A stretch of 64,000 bases of DNA from Escherichia coli (GTDB taxonomy: Bacteria > Pseudomonadota > Gammaproteobacteria > Enterobacterales > Enterobacteriaceae). Below are positions 45,591 through 49,590 of this stretch, in pieces; within the stretch, counting starts at the first letter, position 1; each line of letters starts with the position of its first letter. Under the pieces are notes generated by a model that was not told the DNA's origin, ran no database searches, and saw only the letters and a list, made by a program, of their open reading frames with translations. Both the position numbers and the translations under genes were made by a program. The stretch lies in assembly GCF_002854065.1 (NCBI RefSeq), contig NZ_CP024147.1. One strand, given 5' to 3'.

Positions 45591-45626
45591 AGTTTAGATG
45601 TCCAGATGTATTGACGTCCATTAACA
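45591..45626 (+). promoter_or_regulatory. Tandem met boxes (MetJ operator) upstream of metB
   Basis: ttagatgt ccagatgt attgacgt ccattaac: consecutive 8-bp repeats resembling AGACGTCT. Confidence 0.55.
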
Positions 45627-45682
45627 CAATGTTTACTCTGGTGCCTGACATTTCACCGACCAAGCCCAGGGAACTTCATCAC

Positions 45683-46843
45683 ATGACGCGTAAACAGGCC
45701 ACCATCGCAGTGCGTAGCGGGTTAAATGACGACGAACAGTATGGTTGCGTTGTCCCTCCCATCCATCTTTCCAGCACCTATAACTTTACCGGATTTAATG
45801 AACCGCGCGCGCATGATTACTCGCGTCGCGGCAACCCAACGCGCGATGTGGTTCAGCGTGCGCTGGCAGAACTGGAAGGCGGTGCTGGTGCAGTACTTAC
45901 TAATACCGGCATGTCCGCGATTCACCTGGTAACGACCGTCTTTTTGAAACCTGGCGATCTGCTGGTTGCGCCGCACGACTGCTACGGCGGTAGCTATCGC
46001 CTGTTCGACAGCCTGGCGAAACGCGGTTGCTATCGCGTGTTGTTTGTTGATCAAGGCGATGAACAGGCATTACGGGCAGCGCTGGCAGAAAACCCCAAAC
46101 TGGTACTGGTAGAAAGCCCAAGTAATCCATTGTTACGCGTCGTGGATATTGCGAAAATCTGCCATCTGGCAAGGGAAGTCGGGGCGGTGAGCGTGGTGGA
46201 TAACACCTTCTTAAGCCCGGCATTACAAAATCCGCTGGCATTGGGTGCCGATCTGGTGTTGCATTCATGTACGAAATATCTGAACGGTCACTCTGACGTG
46301 GTGGCTGGCGTGGTGATTGCTAAAGACCCGGACGTTGTCACTGAACTTGCCTGGTGGGCAAACAATATTGGCGTGACGGGCGGCGCGTTTGACAGCTATC
46401 TGCTGCTACGCGGGTTGCGAACGCTGGTGCCGCGTATGGAGCTGGCGCAGCGCAACGCGCAGGCGATTGTGAAATATCTGCAAACCCAGCCGTTGGTGAA
46501 AAAACTGTATCACCCGTCGCTGCCGGAAAATCAGGGGCATGAAATTGCCGCGCGTCAGCAAAAAGGCTTTGGCGCAATGTTGAGTTTTGAACTGGATGGC
46601 GATGAGCAGACGCTGCGTCGTTTCCTGGGCGGGCTGTCGTTGTTTACGCTGGCGGAATCGTTAGGGGGAGTGGAAAGTTTAATCTCTCACGCCGCAACCA
46701 TGACACATGCAGGCATGGCACCAGAAGCGCGTGCTGCCGCCGGGATCTCCGAGACGCTGCTGCGTATCTCCACCGGTATTGAAGATGGCGAAGATTTAAT
46801 TGCCGACCTGGAAAATGGCTTCCGGGCTGCAAACAAGGGGTAA
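45683..46843 (+). CDS. metB: Cystathionine gamma-synthase
   Basis: 386 aa from MTRKQATIAVRSGLNDDEQYG... Confidence 0.95.
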   Translation: MTRKQATIAVRSGLNDDEQYGCVVPPIHLSSTYNFTGFNEPRAHDYSRRGNPTRDVVQRALAELEGGAGAVLTNTGMSAIHLVTTVFLKPGDLLVAPHDCYGGSYRLFDSLAKRGCYRVLFVDQGDEQALRAALAENPKLVLVESPSNPLLRVVDIAKICHLAREVGAVSVVDNTFLSPALQNPLALGADLVLHSCTKYLNGHSDVVAGVVIAKDPDVVTELAWWANNIGVTGGAFDSYLLLRGLRTLVPRMELAQRNAQAIVKYLQTQPLVKKLYHPSLPENQGHEIAARQQKGFGAMLSFELDGDEQTLRRFLGGLSLFTLAESLGGVESLISHAATMTHAGMAPEARAAAGISETLLRISTGIEDGEDLIADLENGFRAANKG

Positions 46844-46845
46844 AA

Positions 46846-49278
46846 ATGAGTGTGATTGCGCAGGCAGGGGCGAAAGGTCGTCAGCTGCATAAATTTGGTG
46901 GCAGTAGTCTGGCTGATGTGAAGTGTTATTTGCGTGTCGCGGGCATTATGGCGGAGTACTCTCAGCCTGACGATATGATGGTGGTTTCCGCCGCCGGTAG
47001 CACCACTAACCAGTTGATTAACTGGTTGAAACTAAGCCAGACCGATCGTCTCTCTGCGCATCAGGTTCAACAAACGCTGCGTCGCTATCAGTGCGATCTG
47101 ATTAGCGGCCTGCTACCCGCCGAAGAAGCCGATAGCCTCATTAGCGCTTTTGTCAGCGATCTTGAGCGCCTGGCGGCGCTGCTCGACAGCGGTATTAACG
47201 ACGCAGTGTATGCGGAAGTAGTGGGCCACGGTGAAGTGTGGTCGGCGCGCCTGATGTCTGCGGTGCTTAATCAACAAGGGCTGCCAGCGGCCTGGCTTGA
47301 TGCCCGCGAGTTTTTACGCGCTGAACGCGCTGCGCAACCGCAGGTTGATGAAGGGCTTTCTTACCCGTTGCTGCAACAGCTACTGGTACAACATCCGGGT
47401 AAACGTCTGGTGGTGACCGGGTTTATCAGCCGTAACAACGCCGGTGAAACGGTGCTGCTGGGGCGTAACGGTTCCGACTATTCCGCGACACAAATCGGTG
47501 CGCTGGCGGGTGTTTCTCGTGTAACCATCTGGAGCGACGTCGCCGGGGTATACAGTGCCGACCCGCGTAAAGTGAAAGATGCCTGCCTGCTGCCGTTGCT
47601 GCGTCTGGATGAGGCCAGCGAACTGGCGCGTCTGGCGGCTCCCGTTCTTCACGCCCGTACTTTACAGCCAGTATCCGGTAGCGAAATCGACCTGCAGCTG
47701 CGCTGTAGCTACACGCCGGATCAAGGCTCCACGCGCATTGAACGCGTGCTGGCCTCCGGTACTGGTGCGCGTATTGTCACCAGCCACGATGATGTCTGCT
47801 TGATTGAGTTTCAGGTGCCCACCAGCCAGGATTTCAAACTGGCGCATAAAGAGATCGACCAGATCCTGAAACGTGCCCAGGTGCGTCCATTGGCGGTTGG
47901 CGTGCATAACGATCGCCAGTTGCTGCAATTTTGCTACACCTCAGAAGTGGCCGACAGTGCGCTGAAAATCCTCGACGAAGCGGGATTACCTGGCGAACTG
48001 CGCCTGCGTCAGGGGCTGGCGCTGGTGGCGATGGTCGGGGCGGGTGTCACCCGTAACCCGCTGCATTGCCACCGCTTCTGGCAGCAACTGAAAGGCCAGC
48101 CGGTCGAGTTTACCTGGCAGTCCGATGACGGCATCAGCCTGGTGGCAGTACTGCGCACCGGCCCGACCGAAAGCCTGATTCAGGGCCTGCATCAGTCCGT
48201 CTTCCGCGCAGAAAAACGCATCGGCCTGGTGCTGTTCGGCAAAGGCAATATCGGCTCCCGCTGGCTGGAACTGTTCGCCCGCGAGCAGAGCACGCTTTCG
48301 GCGCGTACCGGCTTTGAATTTGTGCTGGCAGGCGTGGTGGACAGCCGCCGCAGTCTGTTGAGTTATGACGGGCTGGACGCCAGCCGCGCGTTAGCCTTCT
48401 TCAACGATGAAGCGGTCGAGCAGGATGAAGAGTCGTTGTTCCTGTGGATGCGCGCCCATCCGTATGATGATTTAGTGGTGCTGGACGTTACCGCCAGCCA
48501 GCAGCTGGCTGACCAGTATCTTGATTTCGCCAGCCACGGTTTCCACGTCATCAGTGCCAACAAACTGGCGGGAGCAAGCGACAGCAATAAATATCGCCAG
48601 ATCCACGACGCCTTCGAAAAAACCGGGCGTCACTGGCTATACAACGCCACCGTCGGTGCGGGCTTGCCGATCAACCATACCGTGCGCGATCTGATCGACA
48701 GCGGCGATACTATTTTGTCGATCAGTGGGATCTTCTCCGGCACGCTCTCCTGGCTGTTCCTGCAATTCGACGGTAGCGTGCCGTTTACCGAGCTGGTGGA
48801 TCAGGCGTGGCAGCAGGGCTTAACCGAGCCTGATCCGCGTGACGACCTCTCCGGCAAAGACGTAATGCGCAAGCTGGTGATTCTGGCGCGTGAAGCGGGT
48901 TACAACATTGAACCGGACCAGGTACGTGTGGAATCGCTGGTGCCTGCTCATTGCGAAGGCGGCAGCATCGACCATTTCTTTGAAAATGGCGATGAACTTA
49001 ACGAGCAGATGGTGCAACGGCTGGAAGCGGCCCGCGAAATGGGACTGGTGCTGCGCTACGTGGCGCGTTTCGATGCCAACGGCAAAGCGCGTGTGGGCGT
49101 GGAGGCGGTGCGTGAAGACCATCCGCTGGCATCACTGCTGCCGTGCGATAACGTCTTTGCCATCGAAAGCCGCTGGTATCGCGACAACCCGCTGGTGATC
49201 CGTGGGCCTGGCGCGGGGCGCGACGTCACCGCCGGGGCGATTCAGTCGGATATCAACCGGCTGGCACAGTTGTTGTAA
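46846..49278 (+). CDS. metL: Bifunctional aspartokinase II / homoserine dehydrogenase II
   Basis: 810-aa ORF directly after metB. Confidence 0.95.
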   Translation: MSVIAQAGAKGRQLHKFGGSSLADVKCYLRVAGIMAEYSQPDDMMVVSAAGSTTNQLINWLKLSQTDRLSAHQVQQTLRRYQCDLISGLLPAEEADSLISAFVSDLERLAALLDSGINDAVYAEVVGHGEVWSARLMSAVLNQQGLPAAWLDAREFLRAERAAQPQVDEGLSYPLLQQLLVQHPGKRLVVTGFISRNNAGETVLLGRNGSDYSATQIGALAGVSRVTIWSDVAGVYSADPRKVKDACLLPLLRLDEASELARLAAPVLHARTLQPVSGSEIDLQLRCSYTPDQGSTRIERVLASGTGARIVTSHDDVCLIEFQVPTSQDFKLAHKEIDQILKRAQVRPLAVGVHNDRQLLQFCYTSEVADSALKILDEAGLPGELRLRQGLALVAMVGAGVTRNPLHCHRFWQQLKGQPVEFTWQSDDGISLVAVLRTGPTESLIQGLHQSVFRAEKRIGLVLFGKGNIGSRWLELFAREQSTLSARTGFEFVLAGVVDSRRSLLSYDGLDASRALAFFNDEAVEQDEESLFLWMRAHPYDDLVVLDVTASQQLADQYLDFASHGFHVISANKLAGASDSNKYRQIHDAFEKTGRHWLYNATVGAGLPINHTVRDLIDSGDTILSISGIFSGTLSWLFLQFDGSVPFTELVDQAWQQGLTEPDPRDDLSGKDVMRKLVILAREAGYNIEPDQVRVESLVPAHCEGGSIDHFFENGDELNEQMVQRLEAAREMGLVLRYVARFDANGKARVGVEAVREDHPLASLLPCDNVFAIESRWYRDNPLVIRGPGAGRDVTAGAIQSDINRLAQLL

Positions 49279-49553
49279 TTTCAGAAATTTAATAATGCCC
49301 GGTACTCATGTTTTCGGGTCTATGGTTTCTAATGAAATATATTGAATTATCATAGGATTAGGCCGGATGAAGCGTTTACGACGAATCCGGCAAGAAGCAA
49401 TAAGTACATGGTTAGTTAATATTTGCAGTCCGGTTTGCTTTGCATACCGGATTTTCTTTTTCTTACCATCCTGAAGTTTTTTCATCTTCCCTGATTTTTC
49501 CTCACCATCATTGGTCATTTTTCGGTTGACGCCCTTCGGCTTTTCCTTCATCT

Positions 49554-49590
49554 TTACATCTGGACGTCTAAACGGATAGATGTGCACAAC
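49554..49590 (+). promoter_or_regulatory. Tandem met boxes (MetJ operator) upstream of metF
   Basis: acatctgg acgtctaa acggatag atgtgcac. Confidence 0.5.

Follow-up and report, generated by a model that had tools for sequence, protein, structure and literature searches.

The window, the 64 kb stretch of Escherichia coli chromosome that we analysed as a whole, carries yiiX-metJ-metBL-metF-katG (Table 1). The genes metJ, metB, metL and metF were named by NCBIfam equivalog models together with the RefSeq annotation of identical DNA. All of metB, metL and metF are full-length and score over the equivalog cut-offs; metL, separated from metB by a gap of 2 bp, is the second gene of the metBL operon. 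MetJ is identical to K-12 MetJ at 105/105 residues, and its residues 2-105 match PDB 1CMA/1CMB/1CMC; repressor-operator structures have been solved (PDB 1CMA and the 1MJ* series). The candidate metBL terminator was not called by a terminator scan with a loop limit of 8. The metL-metF spacer also holds an antisense open reading frame, labelled 'hypothetical protein' by PGAP, without a Pfam match and unannotated in MG1655, which is probably spurious. Strain CUWW06 matches the met region at 100%, and 38 kb away it is neither collinear with nor identical to the window.

Table 1 Genes and regulatory features of the metJ-metBL-metF region
Feature	Position	Strand	Evidence
metJ, SAM-dependent met repressor	45089..45406	-	NF003622 222.7 bits; K-12 MetJ 100% identical
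Two sigma-70-like sites, TGGACA-18-TAGATT (45604 to 45575) and TTGAGC-17-TAAAAT (45576 to 45548)	45548..45604	- (metJ strand)	consensus matches only
Possible degenerate fifth box ATACGCAA, upstream of metB array (uncertain)	45580..45587	.	-0.88 bits, 4/8 matches, sub-threshold
metB/metJ MetJ operator, four tandem met boxes AGAAGTTT AGATGTCC AGATGTAT TGACGTCC	45588..45619	.	PWM 31.18 bits
Putative metB promoter, -35 TTGACG (45611-45616), 17-bp spacer, -10 TACTCT (45634-45639)	45611..45639	+	hand-read from sequence
metB, cystathionine gamma-synthase	45683..46843	+	NF005961 870.9 bits; RefSeq annotation
metL, aspartate kinase/homoserine dehydrogenase II	46846..49278	+	NF007003 1457.8 bits
Candidate metBL terminator, hairpin then T-rich run	49427..49453	+	8-bp outer stem, MFE and centroid folds
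MetR-type site TGAAGTTTTTTCA, upstream of metF promoter	49472..49484	.	matches TGAANNNNNTTCA
Putative metF promoter, -35 TTGACG (49526-49531), 17-bp spacer, -10 CATCTT (49549-49554)	49526..49554	+	sequence
Likely degenerate fifth metF box CTTCATCT	49546..49553	.	4/8 matches, -7.65 bits, sub-threshold; assigned by position
metF MetJ operator, four tandem met boxes TTACATCT GGACGTCT AAACGGAT AGATGTGC	49554..49585	.	PWM 24.92 bits
metF, methylenetetrahydrofolate reductase	49627..50517	+	NF006950 610.8 bits

All 64 kb were scanned for met boxes with the published MetJ matrix (PMC3228920 Table 3), taking as a box any octamer with at least one quarter of the consensus score (3.15 bits) and as an array any run totalling the consensus score (12.58 bits) or more. 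Strong tandem arrays emerged at just two places, metB and metF, with boxes of 4.5-10.4 bits and totals of 31.18 and 24.92 bits; each consists of four adjacent units, and neighbouring registers give lower scores. The metB boxes score 6.8, 9.0, 8.6 and 6.9 bits with the published matrix, each with 6/8 consensus matches. This array sits in the metJ-metB intergenic region common to both genes, 63 bp from the metB ATG and 181 bp from metJ on the opposite strand. The metF boxes score 5.1, 10.4, 5.0 and 4.5 bits (5, 7, 5 and 5 of 8 consensus matches), and the array ends 41 bp from the metF ATG. An earlier note on this DNA had described tandem 8-bp repeats upstream of both genes, with at least four units at metB; they are real, in phase and AGACGTCT-like at both places, and the matrix supports four units at metB. 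The limits it gave were less exact: its metB range, 45591-45626, covers most of the array but starts 3 bp inside box 1 and ends 7 bp past box 4, and its metF range, 49554-49590, begins precisely at box 1 but runs 5 bp past box 4.

Candidates for a fifth box on either flank of either array were all sub-threshold (-0.9 to -16 bits). At metF the matrix thus supports four boxes versus the five of the classical literature (PMC3274233 and bioRxiv 10.1101/254623). At metB, the block at 45580-45587 is nearly invariant across Enterobacterales despite its sub-threshold box score, an invariance that overlapping metJ promoter-like sites could explain equally well.

As K-12 reference we used the met-box entries of Augustus & Spicer 2011 Table S1 (PMC3228920), and against these entries both arrays match letter for letter, with the same distances and the same scores, listed there as 31.2 and 24.95 bits. 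The 32 bp of the MG1655 metB/metJ operator are identical to those in the window, with the same 31.2 bits and the same 63 bp to the metB ATG, as are the 32 bp of the K-12 metF operator (about 24.9 bits, 41 bp to the ATG), which shows no difference from the window. The identical K-12 operators have been characterized by lacZ repression and gel shifts (PMC3228920), and for the K-12 metF boxes the literature describes overlap with the -10 region and in vivo MetJ binding (bioRxiv 10.1101/254623). According to the same entries, the other E. coli MetJ operators (metA, metC, metE/metR, metK, metNIQ, mmuP and ybdH/mtnE), none of which lies within this window, likewise have 2-4 in-phase 8-bp boxes near the start codon; among the K-12 entries compared, the metB array ranks first (31.2 bits versus 15-28 for the others). 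Both arrays here contain at least two adjacent in-phase AGACGTCT-like 8-bp units, occupy methionine-regulon promoters at the typical distance of at most about 75 bp from the start codon, and are conserved over the intergenic background in a genome that encodes the cognate MetJ. We are almost certain that the repeats represent the canonical operators for MetJ in the E. coli metJ-metBL-metF cluster, and no evidence that we found contradicts this reading.

The same regions are widely shared within the species. The 100 bp around the metB array are at least 99% identical in 5360/5425 E. coli genomes; for the 107 bp around the metF array, identity is at least 99% in 3568 genomes and 95-99% in 1851. 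Where divergent E. coli have array variants, the score is maintained or higher (for example, 26.17 bits in ST2747 versus 24.92 here).

The least improbable alternative is that the sites are present in a strain whose circuit does not work, MetJ being defective, say, or a promoter mutated. Expression and binding cannot be read from sequence alone, and the two intergenic regions, each 99% identical to MG1655, differ from K-12 at 4 + 4 positions: four substitutions in the metJ-metB region, which has the same 276-bp length and an unchanged operator, and four differing positions between metL and metF. Yet all eight substitutions lie outside the met boxes, the putative -35 and -10 hexamers, the MetR-type site and the Shine-Dalgarno region; the repressor matches K-12 at every residue, and the three biosynthetic genes are full-length. 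We consider a broken circuit very improbable. The earlier note had also held that the promoters are MetJ-controlled and their regulatory architecture intact; because arrays, putative hexamers and MetJ are all identical to K-12, this appears well supported by the sequence.

To assess conservation we turned to other Gammaproteobacteria, with 120 loci in all. An array precedes metB in 93/93, metF in 32/32 and metJ in 107/120; elsewhere in these loci we counted only 8 arrays over 938 kb (0.55 per 64 kb), which is the chance rate, the shuffle expectation being 0.62. In a phylogenetic footprint, identity to the window base is 0.94 inside versus 0.61 outside the metB array (54 distinct enterobacterial sequences), and 0.83 versus 0.63 for the metF array. 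Orthologous arrays across genera have 2-5 boxes and differ by whole units, and cross-genus substitutions leave the met-box pattern in place (AGAAGTTT, for example, is replaced by AGACATTT or AGACATAT). Among the four-box genera listed, from Enterobacterales to Vibrio, the last metB box reads TGACG[T/G]C[C/T].

Putative promoter elements overlap both arrays. The putative metB -35 hexamer falls within box 4, and the TGGACA -35 of one metJ-strand promoter-like site falls within boxes 2-3; three metJ promoters, one of them constitutive, are described in PMC3228920. At metF, the putative -35 and -10 hexamers are both conserved across Enterobacterales, and the met boxes overlap the -10 region according to bioRxiv 10.1101/254623, which also shows MetJ ChIP at metF and reads out MetJ activity as metF transcript levels in wild type versus delta-metJ. 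The metB and metF promoters escaped a generic sigma-70 scan, their -10 hexamers having only 3/6 matches; the overlap between arrays and promoters therefore rests on hand reading, conservation and that one preprint. Further upstream, the MetR-type site at metF has conserved half-sites and a variable centre (21 enterobacterial sequences). The TGAANNNNNTTCA pattern by itself occurs at chance frequency (2 found versus 1.6 expected), and metF is listed among MetR targets in PMC3228920 and PMC4239095. Neither this site, nor the four-versus-five box count at metF, nor the autoregulation of metJ from the metB array had been remarked on in the earlier note.

Given these overlaps, the blocks might be conserved as promoter elements or MetR sites, with their met-box likeness secondary: metB box 4 contains the -35 TTGACG, and the stretch at 45545-45587 upstream of the metB array, which includes metJ promoter-like hexamers, is no less conserved than the array itself. 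However, conservation tracks an 8-bp periodicity over 32 bp, far past any hexamer, the changes between genera preserve the met-box pattern or alter whole units, and the MetR-type site stands apart from the metF array, 70 bp upstream of it. This explanation is extremely unlikely, and the MetJ operator reading is the one we retain.

In dinucleotide-preserving shuffles of the window, 0/1000 contained any array of at least 24.9 bits, so that the matrix check proposed in the earlier note, run with the published matrix, exceeded background at both places; arrays of at least four boxes occurred at a mean of 0.002 per shuffle. The matrix scan is partly circular, because the matrix was trained partly on the same orthologous sites, and we addressed this with a second test independent of it, a consensus-only match to (AGACGTCT)x4. 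The metB array has 24/32 matches, reached in 0/500 shuffles, and the metF array 22/32, reached in 4/500; the window's seven top-scoring 32-mers fall without exception within the two arrays, in one common 8-bp register. Single good boxes are common (608 octamers over the single-box threshold), and a perfect AGACGTCT inside katG at 51403 is not in any array. A possible extra MetJ site of two boxes at 7339-7354 (14.6 bits) was rejected as chance level, 166/1000 shuffles reaching at least 14.6 bits; it lies in the intergenic DNA that precedes a gene for a carbohydrate porin, within a stretch that has IS1-like elements among its matches. That the two strong arrays are themselves chance likenesses to AGACGTCT in AT-rich intergenic DNA, without a regulatory role, is an idea that such single boxes and the weak pair might encourage, but it is refuted by the shuffles (1000 matrix, 500 consensus-only), by the comparative tests and by the placement of the arrays exactly upstream of two met genes with sequences identical to characterized operators in the Table S1 entries, and we give it practically no credence.

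The stoichiometry and cooperativity of binding, its dependence on SAM, repression in vivo and the ChIP result at metF come from published work. One MetJ dimer binds per 8-bp box and at least two boxes are required (PMC3228920), with SAM as co-repressor (PMC2775130). A SAM-carrying MetJ homodimer, a ribbon-helix-helix protein, occupies each met box; dimers on neighbouring boxes touch, so that repression needs at least two in-phase boxes, and affinity climbs with box number and box quality. The metB array appears to end in the -35 hexamer and also to overlie a -35 element in one or more of the divergent promoter-like sites of metJ; MetJ bound there would therefore keep RNA polymerase from metBL and from part of metJ transcription, and the array would in this way also serve metJ autoregulation. 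The metF array would begin with the final base of the -10 hexamer and overlie the expected transcription start, where MetJ would block polymerase binding or open-complex formation. We infer this steric mechanism from the putative promoter hexamers.

One clinical E. coli strain, 035152 (1/5425 genomes), has an exact 8-bp insertion and one substitution in the metB/metJ array, which as assembled goes from four to five boxes and from 31.2 to 44.6 bits. The variant may be an assembly error, and it does not bear on the strain of the window. Met-box arrays might conceivably evolve within natural populations as whole 8-bp units are gained or lost, altering repression strength, a proposal drawn from sequence comparison that we regard as rather doubtful.

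The arrays are identical to the K-12 textbook MetJ sites, so the finding is correct but ordinary: the operators of this window are already known, nothing about them is new, and their importance is slight beyond annotation quality. On E. coli DNA the published met-box matrix proved highly specific, returning two true arrays and one chance-level two-box match in these 64 kb. For the organism, the sequence indicates the standard SAM/MetJ feedback on methionine biosynthesis, with metJ autoregulation included and nothing changed from K-12.

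In-phase 8-bp units were visible on inspection at both places where an earlier note had reported tandem met boxes, upstream of metB (45591-45626) and metF (49554-49590). We scanned all 64 kb with the half-met-box information weight matrix of Augustus & Spicer (2011; PMC3228920, Table 3) and their cut-offs (every box scoring no less than a quarter of the consensus, and the whole array no less than the full consensus score of 12.58 bits), and obtained three arrays (see table). Dinucleotide-preserving shuffles (n = 1,000) yielded a mean of 0.62 arrays per 64 kb and a top array of 22.1 bits; 24.9 bits was reached in 0/1,000, placing the metB and metF arrays above background, as the note had proposed to check. 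The weak two-box array attained a score matched in 166/1,000 shuffles, and we therefore treat it as noise. It is intergenic and precedes a carbohydrate-porin gene; matches to the surrounding stretch (~6800-7900) include IS1-like elements (median 10 places per genome, many plasmid-borne).

Features of the window discussed here
Feature	Coordinates	Strand	Details
metJ	45089-45406	minus	above NCBIfam equivalog cut-off
metB	45683-46843		above NCBIfam equivalog cut-off
metL	46846-49278		above NCBIfam equivalog cut-off
metF	49627-50517		above NCBIfam equivalog cut-off
metB array	45588-45619		AGAAGTTT AGATGTCC AGATGTAT TGACGTCC; 31.18 bits, matrix
metF array	49554-49585		TTACATCT GGACGTCT AAACGGAT AGATGTGC; 24.92 bits, matrix
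Weak two-box array	7339-7354		AGACATTT AAACATTC; 14.6 bits, matrix
Putative metB promoter	45611-45616, 45634-45639		TTGACG, 17-bp spacer, TACTCT; sequence reading
Putative metF promoter	49526-49531, 49549-49554		TTGACG, 17-bp spacer, CATCTT; sequence reading
Promoter-like site		opposite metB	TGGACA-18-TAGATT, -35 inside boxes 2-3; consensus scan
Promoter-like site		opposite metB	TTGAGC-17-TAAAAT, just beyond array; consensus scan
REP-like hairpin	49362-49391		GCCGGAT...ATCCGGC
Second hairpin	49427-49453		followed by T-rich tail TTTTCTTTTTC; candidate metBL terminator
MetR-type site	49472-49484		TGAAGTTTTTTCA; ~70 bp upstream of metF met boxes; pattern match
70-aa antisense ORF	49306-49518	minus	PGAP 'hypothetical protein' WP_004995588.1 in some genomes

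Because these orthologous sites formed part of the matrix's training set, we also searched with the bare consensus, (AGACGTCT)x4, against 500 shuffles. Agreement was 24/32 positions for the metB array (equalled in 0/500 shuffles) and 22/32 for the metF array (4/500), and the top seven 32-mers of the window all lay inside these two arrays, in one register. The tandem repeats are thus confirmed by matrix, shuffles and bare consensus. A perfect but isolated AGACGTCT within katG (51403-51410), outside any array, illustrates that single boxes are uninformative.

The matrix supported exactly four boxes per array; the note had reported 'at least four units' at metB. The reported metB range started 3 bp off register, inside box 1, and was 7 bp too long; that for metF started exactly at box 1 but ran 5 bp too far. 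By matrix score, the flanks fell below threshold at metB (ATACGCAA, -0.9 bits; ATTAACAC, -14.5 bits) and at metF (CTTCATCT, -7.7 bits; ACAACACA, -16.0 bits). Five met boxes have been described at metF (bioRxiv 10.1101/254623; PMC3274233); the fifth most likely corresponds to the degenerate CTTCATCT, which overlaps the -10, an assignment we infer.

The window is E. coli chromosome, with the met genes lying between rpmE and yiiX at one end and katG at the opposite end, these flanking ORFs also scoring above their cut-offs. The 5.6 kb at 45000-50600 was 100% identical to strain CUWW06 and present, with metJ/metB/metL/metF names, in 5425/5426 complete E. coli genomes; despite this match, the window is not collinear with CUWW06 at ~6800-7900. 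Entries for K-12 MG1655 in Table S1 of PMC3228920 give metB 31.2 bits, four boxes and 63 bp to the start codon (agaagtttagatgtccagatgtattgacgtcc), metF 24.95 bits, four boxes and 41 bp (ttacatctggacgtctaaacggatagatgtgc), and metJ the metB array on the opposite strand at 181 bp; the window agrees with these entries in sequence, score and distance. Direct alignment of the metJ-metB and metL-metF intergenic regions (272/276 and 344/348 bases identical) revealed no difference from MG1655 in the arrays, putative promoter hexamers, MetR-type site or ribosome-binding sites. The window's MetJ is identical to that of K-12 (105/105); its matches include solved structures of the repressor and of the repressor-operator complex (1CMA/1CMB/1CMC, 1MJ series).

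Within E. coli, a 100-bp segment containing the metB array had at least 99% identity in 5360/5425 genomes, and a 107-bp segment containing the metF array at least 99% in 3568 and 95-99% in 1851. In ST2747 and 266917_2, the most divergent E. coli examined, two metF boxes were changed (AAACGGAT to AAATGGAT, AGATGTGC to AGATGTTC); the ST2747 array scored 26.17 bits versus 24.92 in the window. Clinical strain 035152 (retrieved record L003, NZ_CP101705.1, positions 190-229, aligned to 45588-45619), the sole record of 5425 within the 90-95% identity band, has a metJ-metB operator with an exact 8-bp insertion and a C-to-T substitution, giving five in-phase boxes (AGAAGTTT AGATGTCT AGATGTCT AGATGTAT TGACGTCC; 44.6 versus 31.2 bits). 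Either a natural gain of one whole unit or an assembly error could explain this variant.

Across genera, we retrieved 120 loci (938 kb; Enterobacterales, Vibrionales, Pasteurellales, Aeromonadales and relatives) from genome_contigs with a degenerate DNA pattern for a conserved 23-residue MetJ peptide, placed gene starts by tblastn and scored arrays with the PMC3228920 matrix. One retrieved record, a 263-bp contig of a Methylobacterium organophilum assembly (L017, NZ_BPQV01000048.1), carries an enterobacterial-type metJ pattern and is probably contamination. An array lay at most 400 bp upstream of metB in 93/93 loci (four boxes in 79/93; median 61 bp to the start codon), upstream of metF in 32/32 (2-4 boxes; median 46.5 bp) and upstream of metJ in 107/120; only eight arrays occurred elsewhere (0.55 per 64 kb), in line with the shuffle expectation. 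Alignments of the 170 bp upstream of start codons showed clear footprints, with mean identity to the window base of 0.94 inside versus 0.61 outside the array for metB (54 distinct enterobacterial sequences) and 0.83 versus 0.63 for metF (21 sequences). This conservation accords with published surveys, which found met boxes at metB in 166/169 species and at metF in 165/194 (PMC3228920) and place both genes in the core MetJ regulon (PMC4239095).

The metL-metF spacer holds other elements. The MetR-type site, which the earlier note did not mention, has half-sites conserved and a variable centre across Enterobacterales; its bare pattern is about as frequent in the window as chance predicts, and metF is listed among the targets of MetR (PMC3228920, PMC4239095). 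The hairpin with a T-rich tail could terminate metBL transcription. Some part of the 5.6-kb query recurs within E. coli genomes (median 11 places each), which a REP element would fit as a source. The 70-aa ORF, which overlaps both hairpins and the MetR-type site, is unannotated in MG1655 and had no Pfam match; the gene call is probably spurious.

S-adenosylmethionine increases the affinity of the homodimeric repressor MetJ for DNA several-fold (PMC2775130). One dimer occupies one 8-bp box, and at least two adjacent boxes are required for repression (PMC3228920). A preprint showed a MetJ ChIP signal at the metF promoter, where it states that the boxes overlap the -10 region, and gauged MetJ activity by comparing metF transcript levels between wild type and delta-metJ (bioRxiv 10.1101/254623). 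A strict promoter scan called neither the metB nor the metF promoter. The putative metB -35 sits inside box 4, which reads TGACG[T/G]C[C/T] in the listed four-box genera, from Enterobacterales to Vibrio. At metF, both putative hexamers are conserved across Enterobacterales, and the array, whose first base is also the final base of the -10, spans the expected start site. This placement of the arrays suggests, by position, that MetJ would repress metB and metF through steric exclusion. The two promoter-like sites on the opposite strand are plausible metJ promoters. With arrays, putative hexamers and MetJ the same as in K-12, the sequence supports the note's view of MetJ-controlled promoters with an intact regulatory architecture, and the metB and metF arrays as the textbook, already known MetJ operator pair of K-12.
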